From Amphiscolops sp. MND2022 (taxonomy: Eukaryota), in NCBI GenBank assembly GCA_964187785.1, contig OZ076409.1, forward strand, positions 38,380,001-38,444,000: a stretch of 64,000 nucleotides of DNA, read 5' to 3'. This document shows positions 1-38,628 of this stretch, in pieces. A program made the position numbers and the translations under genes. Each line of letters opens with the position of its first letter. Position 1 is the first letter of the stretch. The notes under the pieces are model-generated. The model worked only from the letters and a program-made list of their open reading frames with translations, had not been told where the DNA came from and did not search any database.

Positions 1-2459
1 TAGTGCCAGCTAGATCGACTACATATGTTGCTACCACCACAGGAGTGGCGAACAGATTTAGACTTGCGTTTCTGGCAGAAACACATCTCTGGCCATAAAG
101 TCTTCCACTACTCCCGAGATTCTGATTAGGAGTACAGCACGTGTCAGGAAACCGAACTCGAGTTCAACTATTACATCTGCAAGTAGCCATTATAACTCTT
201 GAAGAGGGATGATCAGTACCTTGATTAATGTCTTAGTATTTTGTTTGATTTTAGATGAAGTTTTGATGTCCCTGTAGTATGCACCTTTATTGAATAGCTT
301 CTATTGAACAGTGTTTCGATCGCCGGAATTACGATAAATAGCAAACCGGTTTACAAAAGTCCTCAATGAACTTGGGGTTTCAAGGTCAAACTTTCATCCA
401 ACTAGTTACATATAGTCAAGGGCAAGAGGTGGAGGCTCAAAAGGCGAAGGCATTCTGGGAAGGGAGTGGTCTCAACCAAGAATTGGTGGGTCATCAAATA
501 ATTGCATTAATAGTTTTAAGCCCATATAGCATTATGCAAAGGAAAGTATTTTAGTCAGCCTCGTTTTTTTCACATTATTTGCCATGTCCCAAATTTATTA
601 TAGTCAAATTGAGAGTGTCAACCATAAAAATCAACTCACCTAATTTTGGATTTTAGATTTGACCCCAAATTAACCAAATACAAAAAATTCGAAGTTTACC
701 AAGTTATAACGTTTTCATACAAGTTTTGTCTACTTTTGGTTAAGCTACGCGGATTAAAAAGTTGAAAACAATCAACAAGGCAAGAATTCGTTGTGCAGTA
801 GTCTGTCATGAAGGCCTAAATTAGAGTTTTTTAACATAAAAATTCTCAAAATTTTAAAGTCCAGAATATTCCAAATTTTAATGTTATGGACAAAAACCAT
901 ATTTCGTCAAAGTTTCAGAGGACACCGAGGATTAGTGTGTGAAAACTGTTAAACTAGCGATCTTTTCGCTGTCCAGTTGGATTTGTCGATAAAAATAACT
1001 TCAAATTCAATTTGCGATAGAAAAGGCTTCAAATGGACATGAAATGTCATCTTGAAGAATCACTGAAATTGTAGAGTTTTTTAGCATTTTTTCTATGCAA
1101 TTTAAGTACAAGTTCCGAGATGCCTCTAGATTTGAGGTTTCCAAATGTCCAAAAATGACAACTCTCAAATGGCTGTGCAGTACGCCTTTTCAAATTCCAC
1201 ATCGCAGTGTTTTCTTTCAAAGACAATTCAGACTTTTCTCCAAATTTCAACTTCTGTAAACATTTTGAAAAGTTCCAGAGTCAGAAGGTTGAAAACCTCA
1301 AACAACGATCGATCTCGTTACCAATAGGCTTTCTCGAAGTCATGTTTCCAGACTTCTGTTAGAAAAGACCTTAAAATTGACCGCATAAACTCAAAAATGT
1401 TAGCAGTTTAGCCGACTTTTGACATTTCCAGTGATTCATTCTTATTCGGAACTTTACTGTAGAAAAGAGCGACTTAGATAGCGATTAATAAATTCTGGTA
1501 AAATAATGGCCCGGAAAAACTCCAAATGATACGCTAGATTCTCAGCGCGCTTTTTGAAGTCAAATTTGCAGTTTTCATAGTAGTAGGTTTTGCCTCAGAA
1601 GGACTTAAAAAATGCGAAATACTCAGAATTTTAATTTTTTTACTTTTTTGCATCTTTTTGTACAGTCTATTGGGCAATTGCATTCCATGAAAAATTTTCT
1701 AAAATAGAAATTCGATTGACATGATCGTTGAAACAACAAAGTCTTCAAAACGCATTTCGGGAACTTAAGTGTGATAAATTTTCCCGAATTCGACAAAAAT
1801 GGTGGTTAAAACACAGTATTTTCTCTCTTTTTTTCGACAGCGTACTGCCAGATTTGGACATTTTACGAATCTTTCGTCTAATTTGAAAAAAAATCTGAAA
1901 GAAACCTTCCTCGAAAATGTAATATTCTTTTTCAACTTTTTTGTTAACTATTCAATATTCAATATTTAAAAAGCTCCAAGCAAAATAATTAGCTAGGCAG
2001 TACGCATTGCAAAGGAAACTCTTTTCCCAAAAACAAAAATTTCAGAAAAACCCAAAAATCAAAAAATTTCTGACGTTTAAGGCATTGTTTGGTAGAATTT
2101 TCGAGATTTTCCGTGGGATAGAATGGGTTAAACATTCAACAACGACTGAACTCGGGATTCAGTGGGTATTTTTCACAAGAGTCATGTAGTTTCTTTAGTA
2201 GAAGTGCTCCTAAAATTCATCCGAATGTTTTAAAAAAATCAAAGATTTCCAATTTTTGACAATTTTAGTGAGATTATGTGAAAAACTAACAAACAGTTAT
2301 GTGCCAAAGTCGCAAGTTCCTTGTATTAGCAAAAACTCGCTGTTTCCAAACGTTTACCGTTTTCTCAGAGCCAAAAATTACCTGAAGAAATGCGCCTCAG
2401 ATTCGAAAGCACTTTTTCGCTACTATTGGAATTACAAAAAATAATATTTTTTGGAGAAT

Positions 2460-3160
2460 ATCTTTTTTGAAAAGTCTCGTAGCGCCGAAAACGTTTTCAG
2501 CTCGCAAAGCTACTTTTTCTCAAGTTGAGGTTGGCTATAAAAGAGAGGGTCTACCCTCAACCAAATGATAATTTCGGGAAGAGGCACAGAGCCAAAAAAG
2601 CTGCAAAAAAGTGGTTTTCAAAATCTATACGAAAAATCTTCAATTCCACGGGGTCAAAAAGTATTAAAGAAGTCACACTGAAGACTCGGCAAACATGTTT
2701 CTTTCGGAGACAAGCTCAAAAAACTAAAAATTGTGGTTCATTTTAAAACTCGGTAAGTCACATAGTGCCGCAAAAATTGAAAGTGACCAGCTACGCTTGG
2801 AAAACAGTGTTGTTCCTGTTGAAAATTGAAAAGACTTTAGGTTCGGAAAGAAATCTGAAAATTCCAGGTGCTGAAAAATTATAAAGGGGGACCCTCTGGT
2901 CTCTTCTTCATTTTTGAAAACATCGAAAACTTTTTGGTTCAGCGCGAGACTCGATCCCACGCACCCCTGCTTTTTAGACTGCGTTAAATCTGCGTTAGCC
3001 ACTAAGCCAAGTGGCCGTGAGAAGTTACTTTAAAAATTGAAGAATATTTGGTAGCGCTGCTTTGGACAGATCCGCTGTTTTGAACAAAAACTGACTGATT
3101 AGGTGTTTCGCGAAAAGCCACTACAATAATCCTTTTTTCTAAAAATAATCGCTAACTAAA
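2460..3160 (-). repeat. Degenerate copy of the HINE-like dispersed repeat family (boundaries approximate)
   Basis: Contains the family subunits 'aaaagtctcgtagcgccgaaaa', 'gtcacatagtgccg' and 'aagggggaccctctgg'. The end block 'aaagccactacaataat...cgctaactaaaa' resembles the end of the 38629-39356 copy. Confidence 0.55.
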
Positions 3161-3903
3161 ATTTTGGTATGTTAGGTACTGGTATCATTATGGTTCAACA
3201 AAAAACAATTAAGTACTTAGCGTGTTTATAATTGAGCTGTTTCTTTTAAAAATGGGCTAAGATGAGTCAAAAGTTTCTTTTCTTCAAACCTCTTTGCATT
3301 TTCATTTTGCATTGGCTATTCTTGAGCCTCAAATTTAAGTCGTTCCAGAACAGTTTGGGGCAGAAATTCTTGCTGGTAGTGGGCGTCTTGATGTCAACAA
3401 TTAATTGATTGGTTCGTTTTCCGAAAACAAATATTGATAGAAATACCCAAATAATGCAATTTTTGAAGCTTGAATTAAGAATGAATCAAAAGCCGAGAAA
3501 TTGAAAAAAGATTCACATAGATTTCAGATAGCAATAAAAGGTTCGAATGCAGCGTTTGATGTCATTCGTCGTCAAAAAGCACAACATTATAACCAAACCT
3601 TAGGACACCGCAATTAGCTTCATGCTGAAAAATCACCAAATTTTGCCTCCGAACACGCATAATATCGTCACATGGTCAATACAGCGAACTGGCAGTTGAA
3701 ATACATACCAACTGGAACCTATGATAATTGAGCCTTTGCTTTCTTCTCATGAATATGCCAACATAGAATCCGTTTATCATTATTCCAAAAAAATTAATTT
3801 GGTTACTCTGACACTACTAAGGGAAGAAGTGAGTTCACCGGAAGTATTTGATGAGTGATGGAGCAATCGTGAAATCAAAACTCTTTGATACGGAGTTAAA
3901 TGT

Positions 3904-16762: not shown

Positions 16763-16868
16763 GCATGTGCTTCCATGCATGTTCCATGTTAATTCGATGC
16801 ATGTGACATGCACAATTGTGCATGTCACATGCATCGAATTAACATGGAACATGCATGGAAGCACATGC
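16763..16868. repeat. 106-bp perfect palindrome without spacer, CATG-rich
   Basis: Arms 16763-16815 and 16816-16868 are exact reverse complements centred on cacaa|ttgtg. Confidence 0.95.
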
Positions 16869-24726: not shown

Positions 24727-27700
24727 TTAATATGCGCTGTTACAATATACTTGAACATAATCATGGCTCGCATGGCCTGGGTGATACCTAATCTGTTGTC
24801 CACGTACAAAAACTCTCGCGGGAAAAAGAGTGGAATTTTCTCGCCAAGGCGATGGTGAGCAGCTTACCGCTGTTCGATTGTAATTTTTCAACAAAGCGAT
24901 AACTTTCGGAATTTGCTTATCTGCCGCAAAATTTGCAGATAGCATCTTTTCATTTAGCGCGCGAGTCGACGGGCTCTGATTCATTCTCAGCTTCGAGCTG
25001 ATTACACTGTTCACTGTAAACCACTCGTTCACTAGCATTTTTGCCGTCACTGTTGCCCCTTCCATTTTACTGGGCTGCCTGTATAAGTAATCAGCCATGC
25101 CTAAAGATCTCCCGGCTACATGAATTACCTTCAACTCAAATGAGAACAGTCGATCTACGCATCTAGTTAATTGGCTAGAAAATGTTTTATTTCATCTATT
25201 CCATTTTAGGAGAGACATAAAAGATTTATGATCAGACACTATCAATTGTACTCCATACACGTCGTTTTTAAAACGTTCAAAGGCCCACACTAGTGCTAAA
25301 GGTTCTAATTCATTTATAGAATACTTTGTTTCGAAGTCCGTTAAAAATCTTGACGCAAAGCTGATTGGTCTCCATACACCATCGTTTTGACTTTGTTGAA
25401 AACACGGTCCCTTTTTGCTAGCGTCGCAAATGATTCTTGCATCTTCGTTCCATTTAAAATGTGACAATTTGTTTGATTTTTTTGTTGATTTTAATAAATG
25501 CTTTTCAATGTTCATCCCCCATATCTATTCAGCATCTGATTTCAAGATCGTTCTAAAGGGGTAATTAATAACAGCTAAGTTTAGACTAAACCGATTCAAA
25601 AGGTTGACGGCTCCAAGGAATGAGCGCAATTGTTCTAAGTTCGACGGGCTCAATCTTTCACTTATTCCCTTACCCTTTGCATCTACTGGGGAAGTACCCG
25701 TTTTGATTAATTTGTAATCTAGCTATTCTATACTGTTATAAGCTATCACGCATTTAGGTGCTTTCTATTGCATATTTGCCTCATCCAAGTCCTTCATGAC
25801 TTCTCTCACCTTGTTTAAAAGGTCAGCCTTGGTTCCTGTTGTTACAATTAAAATGTCGTTTGTATACACAAATACACTATTTATATTTACAAGCGTGGGG
25901 TCCATCAATTTCACTAATTCAGTAGGCTTTACTGTTAGGCCATAATATCCTGTTATGAAACGATACGTCCTGGTAGATTTTCCTCCAACTATTTAAAACT
26001 TACAGTGTTTCTTGGTTGTCTTATGTAAAGGTTGTCTCATGTCCATATGCACTGGCGAATACCAAGGCTCCCCTTTTTTGTCTAGTTTTCAGCAATCAGA
26101 TGTATTATATTCTGCAAGTTCGGCATTTGGTTTTTGTTTTTGGATATTGATTCGTTTAGTGCTCTCGCGTTTAACGCTATTTTAATAGACTTGTCTTTTT
26201 TAACTGTTATATTGGTTGGTTGGATAAATACATCATCTTGAATTTTGTTTTTTTGTTCAAAATGGCCTTTTTTTACCAGTTTTTCAATATCTTTATCAAC
26301 TTGGTCTCGTAACTGAATTGGTACTTTACAGCCTTTTTGGTTGCGAAAATTTCTGCATTTTCTTTCAAATCAATTTTGCTTTCGTAACTTCTCACTCGCC
26401 TGTTTACATTATTTACCGTCTAGTCACAATTCACAAATGCGCCAGTTTGTTCATACTCACCACTTTCTATTGCCTTCTTAATTCGATAACGAAGAGCAAT
26501 TAACCAATCGCGTCCCACTATCGACTTTCCGGAATTTGGAACCACAAGCAATCTAGCCTTTGATACATTCACCCCCGTTACTTTTAATCGAACGAATTGA
26601 TGCCCTAACAATTTCAACGGTCGTTTGGTATAATCTACGTACTGTTCGATTTCGATCATTTGGCTAACAACTACTACCTTCCGTTCTCCAATGATTTGTT
26701 GAAGGTCTTTTTTGTGAATATCAATACGGGTGATCGGGTGTCATTGATGGCTTTAAATTGCTTTCCACACATTAATCCCTCCATGTAGAACGACTTCTGA
26801 CCCTTTCCATCAATGTGCACCACTAATTGCTCTTCATCGTCATCTGGTTCTTCTTCAGAACCTGTGGGGAAACGTTTTATTGCAGCATTTCTCCATTAGC
26901 CCCACTAATTCACAAAATTTACACTTTTAATTGTTTGCCTCACAGTTCTTCATGTGCTCCATTGTGAAGTTCAACTCCTTGCATCTGAAGCACTCCCTCC
27001 GGTTAGTCTTCTCCACTGCAAATACGGTTTTGGTTTCCACAGTCGACTTTAATGACTCGGCGTTTTGCACTTCAAAAGACTTTTGTCGCTTCACGCCCTC
27101 CTCAAAAACTTTTGCATGTTCCAGGGCTTGCTCAGGTTCCCTAGGTTCGGTGCAAAGCTTCTCTTGAACTTTTTTTATTGAACATGTGAACATTAAGCAT
27201 GTCCAATACCAAAAGCGTCGTAGTTTCTCCAAAATCACATGTAGCTGCTAAGACGTTCAACGCGTGCCGGAATTGGTACAGCGTCTCTCCACGTTGTTGC
27301 ATTCTCGAAAAAGTGATGTCTATCCAGTGTCCCTTTTCTTTTTTTTTCAAGAGTCATTCTGTGCACATCTGGATTAGCTCACTCACTTTCAATGCCCACA
27401 TTATTGTATGAGAAAGTTTGTCCCAAAACGTCTTTCTGACAGCTTCATCAAGGGATAAGAACATTGCGCTTACCACCTTTTTGTTGGCAAGATCTTCGTT
27501 TAAATCCCCCATCAATGATCGCACCCTGGGTGGCTGCTCTGTCACTTCTCTGGTCATCTCAGTGATAGAAATCGAACATTTTGCCATTATGGCAACTTGG
27601 AATAAGGGAAGCAACTTCTCTCATTCCATAGATGGTGTGGCATTCGCATCATGCCTGAAGACAGGCAATCCCACAAGATGGCATAAGGAAGTTGACACAG

Positions 27701-27730: not shown

Positions 27731-28929
27731 TGTCATAGAGTAACTGAAGGATGATCGATGAATAACAATGCAAGGTTTGAAATGTTGTTTTGATGCAATA
27801 CGTATTATCTTGTCAATTCAATCTTTTCTGACAGTTCTGTTTTTTCCAGACTGGTATCTAATTAATGTTGACAATTAATGATACTACATATTTACAAACA
27901 CTCTACCGCAAACAAAACAGCAAAAATCATGTCTGCTTTTCATACAGACCTCAATCTTAGGCTCACTTCGTGAAGCCACACTTCAAAAATCATAATCTGG
28001 GATAACTTCTCATTTCAGTTAAGATGAAATTTCTGATTTTTTATTGAAACATTGTGTCCAAATCCTTGTCCAATAAATTTTTTGATTCGTTTCAAAAATC
28101 AGTAACGATTTGACTGACTGCAATCAGAATCAATGTGATGACCGGCAATTCTTGAAACTTTTTAAATTTTCCATTCTAGAACAAATTTCAATGGTTCATG
28201 ATTCACCTATAGCTGAGTCACCATAAATTGAACAGATCAGATGTACTAGTGCGCACTCAGTTGACACGAAAAAATACTCTCCTCTGGACTTAGAAAGGGT
28301 TTTTATGCTCCACCAACATCGAAGCCGGCAAAAACGGAAATTACAAGGAAAACAATGATGAAAAAGTTCACAGGCTCCATTAAAACTGAAATGTCAAAAA
28401 TTATAACTTTGTTCATTCTGCAATTTTCAGGTTCCGCAAAGGTCGGTAAAAAATGCTAGTCACCCACATTGTAAAGGTTGCAAATTATGGATAACAAGCC
28501 GTTTTTGTTATCTAGTTTTTTAGTCAGCGCTTTTAGTCACCGGCTATAGCAGTAACTTTTTTGAAGACCGGCGAACTGACAGATTTCTATTGGCATTTCT
28601 TTAGGTTAGGAACTCATCACTTGAATTAAAGACAAAGAAAACGAATACGAGAAAGTCCTGAACAAATGTCCTTGAACACTTTTGGAGTCTTAAGGGTGAC
28701 CTCTTTGTTTAATTTTTTGGTTCTGTGGAACTGATGGTAGAATTTTCACCATTTATGAGATTGACCTACGGTTTTTTCGGCACTGTACTGCGACTTTTCC
28801 GCAAAAAAAGCGTTCGGCGAGCTTAAAGCTCCTTTTTGTGACTTCCAAAGAAAAAATTCATAGAAATTATTAAATTTTGAGTCTTATCGAAGTCACTTCG
28901 GGTATTTTTGGCACCGAAAAATTGATAAT

Positions 28930-29175
28930 TGTTTCAGTTCCAAGTCAATGATAGCTTGATTTTTGGAAGTCGAAACGTGTGAACAAAAAACTTTCTAGTT
29001 TTCATTGCCGAAATTTGCTAGCAGTTAATCAACCGTCATTAATGTTATCAAACAAGTTGTGATTTCTGCAATTCTTGACCAAAGAACTCGTTGTTTTTAT
29101 TCTGCCGTTCCGAAATTAATCTCTTTGAAGAATAATATTTCTTTTCAATACGAATATATCAAACGAGGCGAAACA
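28930..29175 (+). repeat. BEL/Pao 5' LTR
   Basis: TGTTTC...GAAACA. No difference from the 3' LTR found by eye. Confidence 0.95.
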
Positions 29176-29178
29176 ACG

Positions 29179-29188
29179 TGGCGCCCAA
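29179..29188 (+). promoter_or_regulatory. Primer-binding site (tRNA-Lys-like)
   Basis: TGGCGCCCAA 3 nt after the 5' LTR matches the start of known tRNA-Lys PBS sequences. Confidence 0.7.
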
Positions 29189-29440
29189 ATTGTGCAACAG
29201 CCCACCCCATGAACCCGAGACGAACAACTTCGCAACAGAGATTTAGAAAATAGAAAAAACTTTTCGAAACTCAAGAAAAAGAAAAACTTTTAAACATTTG
29301 GACCTTTAAACTTTTTGTAATTCTTACTGTCTTTTTGAATTAATTTGATGTTGTCACTCGTGCAGTGCGCCTGCTTGAAAAACAAATAATACCAAATTTC
29401 GGCAAAGAACCCCTTCAAAAAAAAATTGTCCCTCCAGGTA

Positions 29441-30100
29441 ATGGTTTTTATTCTTGGCGCGAGTAATATCGACCGCACGCTAAGGAATCTCGACGTTAAC
29501 ACTAGACGTCGTCTCCGTCTTGACGTACTAGGCGTTCCGAGTTTATCGTTCAACGGAAACAACAGCAAACCGGAGACAACAGTTCAATATCAAATAAACA
29601 ACCTCCCAGTAAGTCGTCGCGAGGACATTGTCATTTGGCACGACGTTATAAATAACTCCCTTAGTGCCCACAAAAGTAACGGCAATCGCCCATTAACTGT
29701 CCAACAGTTACTGAACGAGATCATTCTCATTCGCCACCGTATCGTTGCAATAGTCTACGTGCAACGTGACGGAACTCCTTCTGTCTTCCGCCGCCTGATA
29801 GCTGAAACTGGCCTGCTAGTCTTGCATATAATTGATGACATTTATTCTACACAGCAACGCAAGCGAGGACTAGACTTGAATTTGTATCAATTGGTACATC
29901 CAGGTTTTTCTGTTGAGTGGAAAACTGTATCACTTGTTCGCTGGTATTCATATAATCTTCGTCGATTGATTGCACGTCCTCAGCGACCAAGCAACAAAAC
30001 TCGCAAATCATTGAAGAACAAAGTGGCCATTGCTGAAAATAGAAAAAATCGCCAAGCATCGAAACTGCTGGAAAAGAAGCTGAAAGGAAACCGAGCCTGA
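29441..30100 (+). CDS. Accessory ORF0 of the BEL element, 219 aa, putative SGNH/GDSL-hydrolase-like fold with basic C-terminal tail
   Basis: Uninterrupted ORF between PBS and gag. Motif order VFILGAS / VPSLS / DIVIWHDVINNS / YQLVHP parallels SGNH blocks I, II, III and V. K/R-rich tail. The fold assignment is inference. Confidence 0.65.
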   Translation: MVFILGASNIDRTLRNLDVNTRRRLRLDVLGVPSLSFNGNNSKPETTVQYQINNLPVSRREDIVIWHDVINNSLSAHKSNGNRPLTVQQLLNEIILIRHRIVAIVYVQRDGTPSVFRRLIAETGLLVLHIIDDIYSTQQRKRGLDLNLYQLVHPGFSVEWKTVSLVRWYSYNLRRLIARPQRPSNKTRKSLKNKVAIAENRKNRQASKLLEKKLKGNRA

Positions 30101-30220: not shown

Positions 30221-30469
30221 AGGTTGCTACTCTATCAGTGAACTCGAGGACTTCAACCCGAGTAGCTTGGGTTGTTGGTTGATTTGAGATCTCTGATTTT
30301 GCAGTAGCACCTTCTTCCTGTTCGTTTCGGTCTTTTTTTGTTTTCATCGAGTTTTTGTTTCTGGGCACGAGTTGCCGCTCTAATCGGCGAACTCGAGGAC
30401 TTCGACCCGAGTAGCTTGGGTCGTGGGATGATTTGAGTTGCCACCTAGAGCGGCCACTCGTCTCCCAGA
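30221..30469 (+). other. Two diverged copies of a structured RNA element (stem-loop with kink-turn consensus) between ORF0 and gag
   Basis: Core gaactcgaggacttc(a/g)acccgagtagcttgggt(t/c)gt(t/g)g(gt/ga)tgatttgag at ~30240 and ~30389, with compensatory changes and copy-specific outer stems. Confidence 0.65.
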
Positions 30470-30601: not shown

Positions 30602-33600
30602 ATGGAAGACGACACTTTCACTCGAAAAGCCCCCGCTCTTTACCAGTTACGCAAAAAAGCTGAAGCAGAACTTCTTGAAGTTCATGGCGCAGTAAAAGAA
30701 TCAGTCAGTTCTCAAGATCGTCGTGTACGTGTAAATAAACTAGTTCAAAAAAGTATTGAACGTATGCAATCACTATTTGAGCGGAATGACGCATTGCTCA
30801 AACTCTCCAAAAACTCCAAGCATCCGGAAAGACTAGCAACAGAGTTGGAAAACTATTTGAGTACTGTCACTTCAAAACATGATGATGTTCTGAAAGTTAC
30901 CAGTAGGTACCTTGAAGCTTTGACCGATGATGGAAAACCTGCAATTGAAGTTGAGCAAGCAGAAAAGATATCTCAAAAAACGCACTCCGTCCAATCAAAA
31001 ATCGCGAAATCTCAAAAATCATCGGAAAAAGACTTTTCACGTAAGTCTGCTTCGGTGTCCATGACTTCAAGTGAGAAAAAGCGACAGCTGCTTGTGGCTC
31101 GTTTAAGACGTGAGGAAATTGAAAAGCAGAACGAGGCAGAGATGCGCCTAGCGACGCAAAGAAAACAGCAGGAATTAGAAGAGCTTGCCGAAAAGAACCG
31201 GCAACGTCTCGTTTTGGCCAAAATTGATGAAGTCGAACTTCTGGATGATGAATTGGCTGTAGAGGAAGAAAATATTCTCCCTGATGTCTTCTCCGCACAT
31301 GCCAGCCCTGCACACGAGGAACGCACCGAGTCATGGGTAAACGCCGTACCCACCGGTGGCTTGACAGGTTTCGCAACTTTTGACCCGCAAAATGTTTTCT
31401 GTTCCCCATTAGATCAAGTTACTGATCATCATCGAACATCTGTTTCTGTTCAGGGGCCATCGTGTATTAGCTTTGACCGAAATTTCCTATGCGCATCCAC
31501 TGCGTTCAATCCATCACGTGTTTTCGAACCATCGGCTCAACCCAACGCTGTTGCCGATGCACCAATAGCTGTGCCAACCGACGATGAGCGTTTTTTGAAA
31601 AATACAACGCTAGCTAACTTGAAACCATCACCAACGTCGAACCCACCGACTGGTCGCATTACTGTTAAGGATCCACCTGGTGGCAGTAAGGAGCCAGTTA
31701 CTATCAAAGACCTTGCAGAATTGTTCACTTTGAGTCGCAAAGATGCACTGCCCGAATGGAACCTTTCTGAGTTCGACGGCGACCCTTTGAAATGGCCTGA
31801 ATGGTTTGGTCAATTCAATAGCACTGTAGATTCCGCTGCAATCTCTGACGATGCAAAGATGAATTACTTGAAGACATATGTCAAAGGCGAGGCTGCTTCA
31901 GAGATAGCTCATCTAGCGTATTGCGGGACTATGTATAAGGAAGCACTCGAAGCTCTGCAACGAAAATTCGGTCAACCCCACAGCATTGTAGCTGCCCACC
32001 TTGAGAGACTAAATAACTATCCTCAGGTCAAAATGCACAACTCTGAAGCAATCATTGCTTTCACTGGAATTGTTGCAAGTTTGGTGGGGGTGTTCCGATC
32101 GCTTAAGTACGACTCTGACTTGAAAAGTACTACGCTCTTGAATCAAGTAGTTTCAAAGTTACCACCAAACATGAAAGAAGGTTGGTCACTACATGTAGTT
32201 CGAAAGCGTTTTGTCCGTCCTTCTCTGATCGACTTCAAGGATTGGCTACAAGAAAAAGGTGACGCTCACTACCGAATGCGCACACTTCATCCTTCAACTC
32301 AACCAAAACTGGACTCCAAGAGTCTGGTAGTGAAATCAAAAACCTTCTCGCGTTCGTTTCAAGCCAGTTCGACCAATCCAGTGCGCAAAAATGCGACCAG
32401 TCTCCCAAAATGCGTTGCTTGCAACGAAACGCATTTTCTTTGGCGTTGTACAAAGTTCAAGCAAAAAACGCCCACTGAACGCGCAAAACTAGTGGCAGAA
32501 AGTAAACTTTGTTTCTCGTGCTTACAGCCCGACCATTCCTTTCGAAATTGTAGCAGGTCTCTGAAGTGTTCGAAAGAAGGATGCAACAGCTCACACAATA
32601 CACTGTTACACGGTGCGGACAGAGTTTTCCCGATTCGGGAAACAACGCAGGAAACACAGAAGTCGAAAACGCACCTGAAACAGTCTGTCACAGAAAATGC
32701 ATCCTTTTCAGCGTCCGCAACTGGCGTCAAAGGTCTTTTACAAATTTCACGACTTTCCGTATCCGCACAAGAACGAAGTGTAAACACATTAGCACTCTGT
32801 GATTCTGCCTGTAGTCACTCCTGGATATCAGCTGACCTTTCGAAAAAGCTGGGTTTGACCGGCAAACCCCTACGTTTGACCGTCAGTGGCATCAACACAC
32901 AAGAAATTATCGACACGACACAAGTAAAAATTCGAATTGCGTCATGCGATAAAGAAAATGATTTCGCCTTAGAAATTGCGCCCTTTGTAAAGAACGACAT
33001 CAACGTGGGAACAGATACTATTGATGTGAATCAGTTACAGCGGGAGTATCCTCATCTTGCCCCTCTTTCATTGCAAAACTACACGTATTCCGACGTCCAC
33101 GTTATCCTAGGTCAAGATGCTTTTGCTGCAATCCGCCCAATCGAATACTTCGATTGTGAACAACCGAATACTCCAGTAGCCGTCCGACTTCCGATTGGTT
33201 GGGTACTAAGTGGCCCTATGAAATCATCTACTTGTCTGCTATCGTTGTGTTTCAAAGTAAACAACAGCGACTTCGATTTGTCCGAGCAAATACGGTCTTG
33301 GTATGAAATGGACTCATTCGCTGCTTACAAACAAGTTGACCTGCGTTCACAATCCGACCAACGCGCGTTGGAAATGTTAAAGTCGTCTACTTTTTTCGAC
33401 GGTGAGCGGTATTCTGTAGGCATGCTTTGGGCGGAAAACAATTTGACCCTACCAGACAATTATTTTTCGTCCCTAGCACAACTGAAATCGCTCGAGAAAC
33501 GCTTCGAGAGGGATAGCGATTTGCAAAAGCGTTACTCTGAAACAATCAAAGTTGATCTCGAAAAAGGTTATATTGTCCAAGTTCCAGCTTACAGAAAAAA

Positions 33601-36600
33601 TAGTCGAACGTCAAAAGAGTGGTATCTACCACACCACCCAGTATTGAACCCCAACAAACCGGGTAAAGTCCGGAGGGTACTAAATGGAGCGGCTAAGTTT
33701 CAGGGACAGTCACTGAACAATAACTTGCTCATTGGACCAGACCTTCTACAAAATCTGGTGTACGTTCTGTTACGTTTTCGAGAACATCAATTTGCTGTTT
33801 CAGCAGACATTGAGGGTATGTTTTTACAAGTTGGCGTCCCAGCAGAAGATCAACCCTCCCTTCGTTTTTTGTGACGGAAGGATCCACGTGATGAGGTGTC
33901 AATCTTCCAATATACTCGTCACATCTTTGGGGCAAAGGATTCCCCAACTTGTGCAAATTTTGCTCTTCAACTGACTGGCCGTGATAATCAGGCACAATTC
34001 CCTGAAGTAGCAAATGCCATTGAGGAAAAATTCTATATGGACGACTATCTGGACTCTGCTGAATCTGTAGATGTGATTCTTGAACGATGTGAAAGTTTAG
34101 TCCGAGTTCTCAAAAAAGGAGGGTTCAAACTAACCAAGTTTGTCAGCAACGTGCCCACTATCGGCTTGAAACTAAATGATGATGAAAAAGGAGAAGAAGA
34201 CCCCACCGATTCTTGTCAACTTCTATTGCAAACCGCTGCACCATCTTCCTCTCATGTGCTTGGTCTCAAATGGGATCATAACGCAGATAGTCTCGTTGTC
34301 AGTAGAGGAGTGTGCAAGGCGTATGACAACCACGTTACACAACGCGTAGTGCTGTCTGGTGTTTCGTCTGTTTTCGACCCACTTGGTCTTGTCGCTCCGT
34401 TTACAGTCAAAGCAAGAATACTGCTGAAGGAAATTTGGTGCTCCCAAGGTCAAAACTGGGACAACACCCTTCCGCTTAATTTCCAACGTGCCTTCAAAGA
34501 ATGGTCCTTGGAACTGCCCCAGTTATCCAAAATAACCATCAAACGAAGTTACTTCAGAAACATGACTGAAATCCCAGAACTTCATATTTTTGGTGATGCG
34601 TCTCAAGATGCCTTTAGCGCAGTGGCATTTCTCCGTTGTAGAGTAGTCCAACCCGGTGGAAACCACGAAACCGAATTGTCGTTCGTGTTTGGGAAAGCAC
34701 GTGTAGCCCCAATGAAAGCACTTTCAATACCAAAACTTGAGCTTCAAGCGGCTTTATTGGCTGCCAGACTGAAAGAACTGATTTGTAAAGCACTAACTTT
34801 TGAAATCTCTTCTATTTTCCTTTGGACAGATAGTACTACAGTTTTACAGTGGTTACAATCAACTCAACGCCAACCAGCGTTCATTGCAAACCGTGTTGAA
34901 ACCAGGTGAAATCTTAGATAACACTACCTCCGATCAGTGGAACTACGTTCCTACGTCTAACAATCCCGCTGACTCAGGAACCCGTGGGCTCTCGGCTCAT
35001 GATTTGAATTCAAGCCACTGGATTTGCGGCCCTCCTTTCCTGAAAACGGATCAATGGCCTTTCCAACCCAGTCCCCCTCCAGCTGGTTGTTTCCTTCCAA
35101 GTAAAATTATGGAGGAGGCAACAACGAAAGATGCGCTGAACGTGGAAAGCATGACTTCCACTTGTGAAACAAGTTTAATTGACTGGTCAAAATTCAGTTC
35201 CTTCACAAAAGTACGCCGCGTCATGGCCTATGTGCTGCGATTACTTACAAAACATCACCACTTCCGCTCTGGGAAGCAAATTGTCGATCCTGACGAGTTA
35301 GCCAGAGCCGAAGAGAAACTGTTCTATCTGTCACAGGTCGAAACCTTCCCATCAGAACACAAATTGCTAAAACTGAAACAAAACTGTACTGCTTCTAGTC
35401 GAATTGCAACCCTGACTCCGTTTTGTGGTCCTAATTTGGTAATACGGTCCCGAGGTCGACTTCGCCGTCTCATGGAGTACGATTTCCAGTCAAAGCACCC
35501 AATAATTTTAGATTCCCGCCACCCGTTAGTACGTCTACTTCTCGAGTTCTTACATCGGGAAAATTTTCATCAGGGCATAGATTACCTGCGAGCTATTGTT
35601 CAGTCGCGTTTCCATGTGTTGCGATTGCGAACTACACTACGTAGTATTCAATTATCCTGTGTTGTTTGTCGAAAACGCAGAGTTAAACCTTCGCCTCCTA
35701 TCATGGCTGATCTTCCGAACGAACGACTAGGAGTTGATAGCCCCCCTTTCAGCTACACCGGCGTAGACTACTTCGGTCCCTTCTTTGTCAACATTCGCAG
35801 GACAACCGAAAAGCGATGGGGCTTCCTGTTCACCTGCCTGACTACCAGAGCTATTCATTTAGAAGTTGTTGCATCCATGGATACAAGCTCTTGCGTCATG
35901 GCTATCGAACGCTTCATAGCTCGCCGGGGCATGCCCAAAACGTTATGGTCTGACAATGGCACTAATTTTGTTGGAGCTGAAAAGGAGTTAACCCAATGTT
36001 TCAAAAACTGGAGTCACGACTCCATCAGCTCAACTCTCGCTGAAAAGGGGATACGGTGGAAGTTTAACCCACCAGGCACGCCACATCAAGGTGGCAGTTG
36101 GGAAAGACTTGTCCGAAGTTGTAAACAGGTCTTATATGTGATCTTGAATAACCGTCGATTAACTGAAGAGGTCTTGACTACTGCGCTGTGTCTCGTAGAA
36201 CAGGCCCTAAATGCTCGTCCGCTCACTTCGGTAAGTAGCGAAATCACCGACATGGAAGCGTTGACTCCAAACCATTTTTTGCTCGGTCGTAACAGCGTTA
36301 CACTACCTTCGTCCTTACTGAACACAAATGTAGACTTCAGAAAACGCTACTTGAAAGCTCAAGCCTACGCGAACGCTATTTGGGAACGTTGGCTGCGCGA
36401 TTACGCTCCACAACTGAACAAGCGTTCAAAATGGCATCGAGAATCTCACCAATGTTTGAAACCCGGAGACCTAGTCTGGATCCTGGACCCCACTAGTCCT
36501 CGGGGCTATTATCCGATGGCAAGAGTTACACAATTGCAATATGGTGATGACGGTGTAGCTCGCTCCGCTGAGCTCAAAACTCCTACCGGCACGATCGTTC

Positions 36601-36677
36601 GTCCAGTTATTAAATTAATAGCAGTTCTCGACACACCGATTTCCGGGGCGGAGGATGTTTCAGTTCCAAGTCAATGA
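30602..36677 (+). pseudogene. BEL/Pao gag-pol polyprotein interrupted by one premature stop (33872-33874) and one frameshift (~34900)
   Basis: Gag LPEWNLSEFDGDPLKW. Knuckles CVACNETHFLWRC, CFSCLQPDHSFRNC, CSKEGCNSSHNTLLH. Protease ALCDSACSHSWI. RT YLPHHPV and FYMDD. RNase H LHIFGDAS. Integrase GVDYFGP, SDNGTNF, GGSWERLV. The stop codon lies inside the 3' LTR. Confidence 0.93.
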
Positions 36678-36901
36678 TAGCTTGATTTTTGGAAGTCGAA
36701 ACGTGTGAACAAAAAACTTTCTAGTTTTCATTGCCGAAATTTGCTAGCAGTTAATCAACCGTCATTAATGTTATCAAACAAGTTGTGATTTCTGCAATTC
36801 TTGACCAAAGAACTCGTTGTTTTTATTCTGCCGTTCCGAAATTAATCTCTTTGAAGAATAATATTTCTTTTCAATACGAATATATCAAACGAGGCGAAAC
36901 A
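36656..36901 (+). repeat. BEL/Pao 3' LTR
   Basis: Same 246-bp sequence as 28930-29175, preceded by the PPT and followed by TSD ATAAT. Confidence 0.95.
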
Positions 36902-38628
36902 ATAATAATTTAACAATAGTGTATCTTTGCTTATTCAGAAACCTTGGTTTGGTTTGTTAGGCTTGTTAGGCTTTAGGATGCCCAAAGACGAAAAGAGCAT
37001 TTTCGAGTGCAAATGAAATTGAGTTGCAGTTCCATCCAAGATAGTTTGAAAATTTTTAGATCAAATTTCGTGCTACAATCGCGACTGTGATCATACCAAA
37101 ATTGAGGCCGTGAGCGTGTCACGATTCGTACAACGAATCGCGTAATGTAAGATCGTGTTACGAAACGTAAACAATTGAGTTCGTATACTAGGTGAACCAA
37201 AAAACCGAAAGCACAAAATATGTTCGTAATCGAAATCGTATTGTTTGCAAACAAGAAATCCTATCAAATTTCTGTCTATCGTTTAGAAAGAAACACTTGT
37301 TACGTAATCAAATCTTCAACCAAGGATGGTTCGAACCTTCAGAAAAAATCTATAGATCGTTTCAAAAAGTTCGCGAGACTAGGTACCAGTCTTTTAATTA
37401 GCGATGTTATGATATCAATTTCTGCAACCATGCGAGGCAACCGCACATCTGACGACCTTACAAAATCGATATACCGTTTTAAAGATGCAACCCCGGATTA
37501 TGTAAACTCAGCAATTGCTCGGATTTTTTTCGATTTCGGAGTCAGCACTTAGAGGAATCCTGAAGCGACGTATTGGGCAGAAAATGTCAAATTGGGTCAA
37601 AACTCTGTACTCACAAGAAGAATCAAGCATCAGCTTCTCGGCCGCGTTAATCGAAACTCAAAACTCCGGCTTTATGAACTTCTGTATACAGCCAGACGAC
37701 TTTTCTCCAATGCCACGGTACAGCATTGTTTTGAAAAATTGTGACATTTGAAAACGTGTTGCTGTAAAAGACGTTCTTACGAATGCTCAAAAAGATAGGA
37801 GAGTTAACTGGTGCCGTCGACATTTATTTTTTGACTTCACAAAAGGTATTTTCAGCGACGATTAATTAGTTCTAGTCTCGCGAATTTTTGAAACGATCTA
37901 TACATCGAGTGGTTGACGTACATTCTCGTTCAGAATGCTCTAAGAGTCTTCCTTTTATTCGAAAAGAAGGCTATATACTGAGTGAGAGAACAGCATGGAA
38001 AAGGACTTGGAGCACACAAAGTAGGGCCTCTATCAAGAAAAATGTAAAAACTGTAGTCAAAATGCTTTTGGGCATGACAGGGACTTGCTTTCTTCAGAAT
38101 TGATTGCTACAAATTGACAACTAGAAGGTGATGAATGCTATCCAAACACTTTTTGGCTCAAAACCGTGGGAAAATGAGTTTTAGATATTTTGATTAAGTA
38201 TTTTCAAACAGAAATCAAAATCCCGATAAACAGCTCCACTTGAACCAATTCAAGAATTCTTATCCAATTGAACCCAATTTTGAAAAAGTTGAGCAAAATG
38301 CGGGAAAATACTTTCTACCATTGTTAATATTCGACATATGCTTTTAGAGTAACTTTAAGACCATCGAAGCAAATCGCGAAAATCGGACTCACTCGAATGA
38401 TACTTACCATAGATATCTTTCAAAATTCTGGTCGAAAGCTAATTTTTTTTAATTAGAAAAGTGAGAACTTTGCGGCATTCTGACGCTGATTTACAATATT
38501 TAATGCTCCTTGAGGCAGATGCCGCTCGGTTGTAAAAACCCGTTTATAGAAGTTTGAGGCGATAACCGGTTCGACAATAGCCAAAAATCAACAGTATAAT
38601 CATTCGGGAGGTGATTTCTCGATATTTG

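Follow-up and report, generated by a model that had tools for sequence, protein, structure and literature searches.

A predicted SGNH-fold first gene of an acoel BEL/Pao retrotransposon clade, with relatives in Gypsy, LINE and DNA transposons

The window (the whole 64-kb stretch of DNA that was analysed) contains an approximately 8-kb BEL/Pao element flanked by a pair of 246-bp LTRs with 100% identity. The gag-PR-RT-RH-IN order, with the Pfam domains DUF1759, Peptidase_A17, rve and DUF5641, corresponded to a BEL/Pao gag-pol. A 219-aa ORF (ORF0) was located on the forward strand between the PBS and gag, inside the LTRs, as the first-pass annotation had reported. It started 262 nt past the start of the PBS-like TGGCGCCCAA and ended 501 nt short of the gag ATG. 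The motifs quoted in that annotation and the K/R-rich tail were all present in the translation. The features are as follows.

28925–28929, + strand: left TSD (ATAAT, 5 bp), same letters at 36902–36906
28930–29175, + strand: 5' LTR, 246 bp, TG...CA, 100% identity to the 3' LTR
29179–29188, + strand: PBS-like TGGCGCCCAA, 3 nt past the 5' LTR
29441–30100, + strand: ORF0, 219 aa, predicted SGNH fold (aa 1–177) and basic C-terminal helix
30240–30274, + strand: copy 1 of a duplicated hairpin (~35 nt) in the ORF0–gag gap
30389–30423, + strand: copy 2 of the hairpin (~35 nt) in the ORF0–gag gap
30602–33874, + strand: gag-PR-start of RT, gag ATG at 30602, closed by an in-frame stop
33875–34909, + strand: RT end and RNase H (Peptidase_A17), closed by a frameshift
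34797–36677, + strand: integrase frame (H2C2, rve, DUF5641)
36656–36901, + strand: 3' LTR, TG...CA, identical to the 5' LTR
36902–36906, + strand: right TSD (ATAAT)

The ten near-identical copies fetched were 99.4–99.7% identical to the window element and all had an open ORF0, with LTR pairs at 98.8–100% identity in nine of them. The family is young, and it is active. The two gag-pol lesions already described for the window copy were found again, one an in-frame stop (33872–33874) and the other a frameshift near 34.9 kb. They are peculiar to this copy, since 11 of 20 near-identical copies keep one pol-containing frame of at least 2,000 codons. The contrast between an intact ORF0 and a broken gag-pol is therefore no evidence by itself, and it is the family which supplies the evidence. 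Directly 5' of the ORF0 ATG (29430–29446), CCCTCCAG/GTAATG is readable as a splice acceptor or donor. Other BEL families possess different repeated motifs common to their ORF0–gag gaps, possibly a packaging or translation signal. Elsewhere in the 64-kb window, no second ORF0 relative was found. Short ORFs on the reverse strand (24727–27247) resembled a decayed Gypsy gag-pol, with RNase H-like motifs recognised by eye, and a spacerless perfect 53-nt inverted repeat was observed at 16763–16868.

The genome itself (1.07 Gb) contained 2,663 candidate ORF0 matches. Among 150 scored matches, 27 corresponded to the window family and 123 were at 30–40% identity. The best 20 of the 150 were stop-free with 99–100% identity, and about 106 of the 123 more distant ones were without a stop inside the match; ORF0 proved stop-free in most of the scored matches, including diverged families, as expected by the first-pass annotation for a maintained gene, and it is no chance reading frame. 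A profile of 23 sequences recovered 993 clusters from a sequence library at E ≤0.001, and 190 at 1e-30. No longer or fused form was seen among 8,000 candidates, which is weak evidence against such forms.

Selection was estimated by dN/dS (NG86) in two sets of pairs. The first (14 pairs) gave 0.06, 0.086, 0.12, 0.126, 0.19, 0.25 and 0.28 for the unsaturated pairs of sister BEL families; saturation affected five further pairs, a very close BEL pair was at 0.67 and the LINE/DNA-capture pair at 0.23. In the second (13 pairs), BEL families were at 0.07, 0.12, 0.12, 0.17 and 0.46, with three saturated pairs, three close-copy pairs at 0.28–1.13 which rest on few changes, and DNA-transposon ORF0 copies at 0.69 and 0.71, which may be passengers. 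Older copies of the window family showed values of 0.42 and 0.89. The constraint between families anticipated by the first-pass annotation was thus observed, mostly at 0.06–0.28 among sister BEL families. The window BEL/Pao clade carries ORF0 as a genuine accessory gene that selection maintains.

The AlphaFold (AF2) models of the window ORF0 (pLDDT 87.5, pTM 0.75) and of a Gypsy ORF0 member (pLDDT 96.0, pTM 0.88) agreed in topology, with a parallel sheet of five strands in an alpha/beta/alpha arrangement and a basic helix at the C-terminus. The best VIA matches were SGNH/GDSL esterases or acyltransferases for the window model (Z 10.8, rmsd 3.4, 151 aligned) and likewise for the Gypsy-member model (Z 10.2, rmsd 3.1, 144 aligned). 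Oskar OSK (5a4a) was also among them (Z 8.7 and 8.0). Foldseek placed PAF-AH and GDSL lipases first, with no match at E ≤0.001 against the PDB and viral models, and the ZfL2-1 structure was absent among the matches listed. In the ESM Atlas the named matches were GDSL-like (scores 0.79–0.90), to be taken as a lead only. Sequence searches gave no meaningful match in the PDB, Pfam matched nothing in the window ORF0, and it gave no SGNH/GDSL match for 23 ORF0 members at E up to 5. The ORF0 protein is thus predicted to adopt an SGNH fold, the divergent form of which had been suggested from its motifs and is now supported by the two AlphaFold models, the VIA matches and an SGNH-like structural match in Foldseek, though at E values above 0.001. 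A Z score near 10 speaks to the fold and not to the function.

Residue conservation was surveyed in 69 uninterrupted ORF0s from 82 classed loci, grouped into 20 clusters (families) at 70% identity with one representative each. The positions in the window copy are given below.

29462–29464, + strand: Ser8, block-I nucleophile position, in G-A-S after strand 1 (20/20 families, 123/138 library proteins)
29540–29542, + strand: Ser34, block-II position (Gly in 17/20 families, Ser in three including the window)
29636–29656, + strand: WHDVINN, block-III region, His67/Asn71 spacing as in ZfL2-1 H191/N195
29897–29899, + strand: His153, block-V His, in the loop preceding the final core helix (20/20 families)
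29954–30097, + strand: K/R-rich tail with a predicted helix (185–216), candidate RNA-binding or nuclear-targeting motif

The block-I motif is GAS rather than GDS. Block III, in the register that we infer, showed no GxND, with N71 in 19 and N72 in 20 of the 20 families. Further conserved residues were H67 (19/20), D68, H77 and Y106 (20/20 each) and C107 (17/20). Position 150, the block-V Asp site, was variable, and E or D was present at position 159 in 20/20. The DxxH Asp of the Ser-His-Asp triad (PF13472/PF00657 type) was absent among the 20 families. A comparison with 150 library proteins gave the same residue pattern, and the pI of the family representatives ranged from 9.6 to 11.6. The conservation of S8, G34, N71 and H153 indicates that the S-G-N-H set is kept and that the triad Asp is not. 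The Ser and His proposed as candidates in the first-pass annotation are thus kept in all families. Its statement that the canonical Asp and Gly are missing holds for the Asp of blocks I and V and the Gly of block III, which are absent family-wide, but not for the block-II Gly34. The mapping of H67/N71 to ZfL2-1 is deduced from spacing and secondary structure. H67 and C107 would also fit the ZfL2-1 H191/S228 pair by spacing, the profile match being not significant. Because hhalign of the ORF0 profile with six canonical esterases from the genome found nothing meaningful (probability 6%), the case for a descent from LINE ORF1 esterases is one of spacing alone.

The distribution of ORF0 extended well beyond BEL elements. 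Among the first 20 diverged loci, ORF0 preceded the gag of a BEL in 14 and a LINE with an APE-RT ORF2 in six, four of the latter possessing a Pfam PHD of their own or in a near-identical sister. The next 20 stretches comprised nine BEL, two Gypsy, one LINE and four loci upstream of SET and/or DUF1258/Transposase_21 ORFs, together with two in a 1.9-kb tandem array, one unassigned and one without ORF0. The Gypsy ORF0s were inside 156–160-bp LTRs and four further Gypsy copies also carried ORF0; the LINE copies had fixed shared 5' ends approximately 60–265 nt before the ORF0 ATG. These fixed ends and the additional Gypsy copies indicate that ORF0 belongs to the elements. It is the first ORF of several PHD-ORF1 LINE families, of one Gypsy family and of two SET/transposase DNA elements. 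The view of ORF0 as a BEL accessory is supported as to the accessory role and too narrow as to the carrier, the gene being common to LINE, Gypsy and DNA transposons. We take the LINE carriers to be CR1/L2-like, from their domain layout rather than from reference trees.

When loci were selected by pol instead, ORF0 was present in 20/20 members of the window BEL clade (12 full, three open but N-truncated and five split), in 0/20 of the best PF05380-matching other BELs (both LTRs located in ten), in 0/10 Gypsy and in 1/10 LINE loci. One candidate ORF0-positive BEL (L135) was scored absent, as its ORF0 fragment was outside that element. The existence of many BEL, Gypsy and LINE families without ORF0 indicates that it is dispensable for transposition in general. 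Such absences from 20/20 other BELs, 10/10 Gypsy and 9/10 LINE loci sampled, together with near-neutral DNA-transposon copies, would be expected if ORF0 were a hitch-hiking or purely regulatory upstream ORF with a functionless protein. We consider this very improbable given the dN/dS of 0.06–0.28 between families, the confident fold and the residues invariant over saturated dS, and for the BEL ORF0 it is largely refuted by dN/dS and residue conservation. Very probably, ORF0 is an accessory gene with a function, an SGNH fold and a distribution across classes.

The RT phylogeny called for by the first-pass annotation was built as a 37-row RT/RH tree of in-genome elements only, rather than of GyDB or Repbase references. 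The window clade was entirely ORF0-positive, and two ORF0-positive families were nested among ORF0-less BELs. Within the window clade, the RT/RH subclades agreed, by eye, with those of the ORF0 tree. AU tests, run after tree inspection with long branches included and the window ORF0 unplaced, rejected the monophyly of BEL ORF0s (p 0.029) and of LINE ORF0s (p 0.014). The window ORF0 sits on a long branch, and the tree points to no donor for it. With relatives at the head of Gypsy, LINE and DNA transposons, ORF0 is likely a portable helper gene exchanged between unrelated elements. Ten metagenome contigs also carried ORF0 relatives, one in an ORF0-gag and one in an ORF0-ORF1-ORF2 arrangement. 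For these two arrangements the best matches in the present genome were at 54% (measured on the near-identical protein P0006) and 45%, pointing to another host.

An instance of exchange was visible in DNA carrier A, which is bounded by CCCTAG TIRs and 2-bp TSDs (legible on both sides of two of the three loci) and contains subterminal repeats and a Transposase_21/DUF1258-type ORF, the DUF1258 and SET matches of locus L069 being below curated cut-offs. Inside it is a LINE 5' end, including ORF0, that is 96–97% identical to LINE family L044, and judging from this identity its ORF0 is a recent capture from a LINE. For DNA carrier B (the L054 family), TIRs were not established at the loci examined. 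Carrier A is presumably EnSpm/CACTA-like, a label derived from domain layout rather than from reference trees. In loci L069/L102/L113, L093/L111/L114 and L097/L112/L115 the EnSpm-like element is approximately 20 kb in length. Tandem repeats occupy long subterminal stretches, one ORF combines a SET domain with a DUF1258-type transposase region, and a LINE 5' end has been captured. Near the start of contig C10, L051 and L052 formed a tandem array of 1,891-nt units, and every unit contains an ORF0 relative whose sister is the ORF0 of the L054 DNA element.

The presence of ORF0 in four classes, beside SET-domain ORFs and PHD-ORF1s, could be explained by a trans-acting anti-silencing enzyme which would remove an acyl mark from a component of the host defence or chromatin. 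The TET/JBP genes shared among fungal DNA transposons (PMC12730594) provide the analogy. Cheating families would be expected to drop a product that works in trans, yet 20/20 clade members keep ORF0; moreover, the assays described in PMC3905857 showed no deacetylation of histone peptides by the ZfL2-1 esterase. We regard such an activity as unlikely.

The LINE carriers preserve a trace of RNA processing at the DNA level. A 32-nt spliced leader was published for the acoel Symsagittifera roscoffensis (PMC9911081), and from its presence here the host was judged very probably to be that acoel or a close relative. Full-length ORF0-LINE copies started with this same sequence at 23 distinct ORF0-bearing loci, of which three are a captured LINE end, and the ORF0 ATG was the first after the leader in 22. 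The full-length LINE copies with the leader at their 5' ends are L037–L040, L044, L091, L092, L094–L096, L098, L194, L198, L200, L203, L205, L206, L210, L211, L214, L216, L217 and L219. A TTTCAG acceptor unit at the leader junction varied between sister copies, as expected from trans-splicing. These LINEs likely gain their 5' ends by trans-splicing, as far as the junctions can tell, and may regenerate the acceptor in each cycle. The leader also started five ORF0-less loci, three of them LINEs and two with a canonical esterase ORF. At the loci examined, it had no match in BEL or Gypsy loci or in the window, and was not seen joined directly to ORF1 or gag. Its position at retroposed LINE 5' ends, just upstream of ORF0, implies that in LINEs a processed mRNA carries ORF0 as its first cistron. 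Acceptor-like blocks preceded ORF1 in several LINEs. In L044 a block of approximately 40 nt was repeated before ORF0 and before ORF1 (1100–1150 and 1820–1875), which suggests that one kind of processing signal precedes both cistrons.

The addition of a spliced leader by the host to LINE RNA would fit a nuclear RNA escort, in which the SGNH fold would be a scaffold for RNA binding, as in Oskar OSK, and the Arg/Lys tail would serve as an NLS or Rev-like motif. ORF0 would guard or export the full-length polycistronic RNA in a trans-splicing host, as CERV does for Cer1 (PMC10309623). ORF0 is indeed always the first ORF, basic-tailed and class-independent, and OSK (5a4a) is among the structural matches at the Z scores given above. 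OSK is nevertheless outranked by many esterases, and the near-invariant S, N and H at catalytic positions favour chemistry. We judge the escort, argued by analogy with CERV and OSK, rather unlikely.

We propose instead, with a probability of roughly 40%, that ORF0 is a cis-acting accessory protein: its basic tail would attach to the transcript of the element that encodes it, and its predicted SGNH core would bind or cleave an acyl ester through a probable Ser-His dyad, most likely on a membrane lipid as for the ZfL2-1 esterase. The putative engagement of lipid would tether the RNP or particle to membranes. The gene may have originated from a LINE ORF1-type esterase. SGNH enzymes are active with a Ser-His dyad (CE2) or a block-II Ser (SpOatA), as described in PMC9487903. 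PMC3905857 reports that the ZfL2-1 esterase is a basic protein which binds acidic phospholipids, and that an arginine-rich motif is present in its ORF1p. We infer action in cis because each family retains its own copy despite thousands genome-wide (the 2,663 candidates), and the tracking of RT/RH subclades by ORF0 subclades in the window clade counts in the same direction. The membrane role is hard to reconcile with the DNA-transposon carriers of ORF0.

Transposon-borne SGNH domains were already known: ORF1p SGNH esterases have been described in CR1/L2/RTEX/Penelope elements, including ZfL2-1 (PMC3905857). ORF0 resembles the ZfL2-1-type ORF1p described there in its SGNH fold, its position as the 5'-most ORF, its very basic character, an arginine-rich motif and the block-III His-x3-Asn spacing. 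It differs in being a stand-alone protein of approximately 200 aa which starts at strand 1 with no N-terminal coiled coil, in the C-terminal position of the basic motif, in GAS for GDS and the lack of the DxxH Asp, and in its presence on LTR and DNA elements. A Helitron reportedly captured an SGNH domain too (PMC4021074), likewise as an accessory, in another element type and position than ORF0. The bdelloid Vesta ORF3 GDSL esterase (PMC5408684) is likewise an SGNH accessory ORF of an LTR element, common to retroelement classes (Athena/Terminons). As described in that source it is an ORF3 with intact invariant catalytic residues, whereas ORF0 is divergent, precedes gag in BEL/Pao, and occurs in LINEs and DNA transposons as well. 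The Ngaro SGNH ORF (PMC9210276) is similarly a transposon accessory gene, of another element type and position. In the fungal TET/JBP case (PMC12730594) one accessory enzyme family crosses unrelated superfamilies in a host lineage, as ORF0 does, with the difference that the enzyme is another one and that the source describes it in DNA transposons only. CE2, SpOatA (PMC9487903) and Oskar OSK are SGNH variants without the Asp, with a block-II Ser, or non-catalytic. These are cellular proteins with 7–16% identity to ORF0 in structural alignments. A literature search, with Repbase, GyDB and subscription papers outside its scope, found no report of an SGNH ORF in BEL/Pao, of the ORF0 family or of its four-class spread. 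Within that scope, the ORF0-gag-pol layout suspected to be novel in the first-pass annotation was indeed unreported, and what was not found in print is the ORF0 family, its BEL host and its spread over four classes.

The reason why retroelements repeatedly carry SGNH esterases has been an open question since the CR1 descriptions. In the present genome an entire BEL clade retains one uncatalogued family under selection. Related BEL families do without this gene family, and it has passed between LTR, LINE and DNA transposons. Its presence or absence offers natural with/without comparisons, for a protein which is small, soluble and assayable. If ORF0 acts in cis across classes, this would point to a host barrier common to all transposon RNAs. 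LTR elements represent approximately half of the genome in an acoel (PMC9911081). On balance doubtful as a whole is the broader proposal that unrelated transposon classes of this acoel lineage (BEL/Pao, Gypsy, PHD-ORF1 LINE and EnSpm-like) trade one plug-in first gene with a cis advantage against host RNA processing or silencing, the product being a new family of SGNH-fold enzymes with a non-canonical site (Ser-His plus the invariant Asp68, His77 and Glu159) and an RNA-binding tail. If true, this plug-in first gene would be a class-independent transposon accessory factor in an animal.

Two further arrangements were observed among the loci. A Gypsy-like family (L071–L078 and L082) possessed a canonical GDS/GTND/DGxH esterase fused C-terminal to the integrase, a separate SGNH capture. 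In L136 and L138, which are ORF0-less BEL sisters of the L057 family, a 293-aa antisense ORF (2414–3292, − strand) extended over the LTR and leader.
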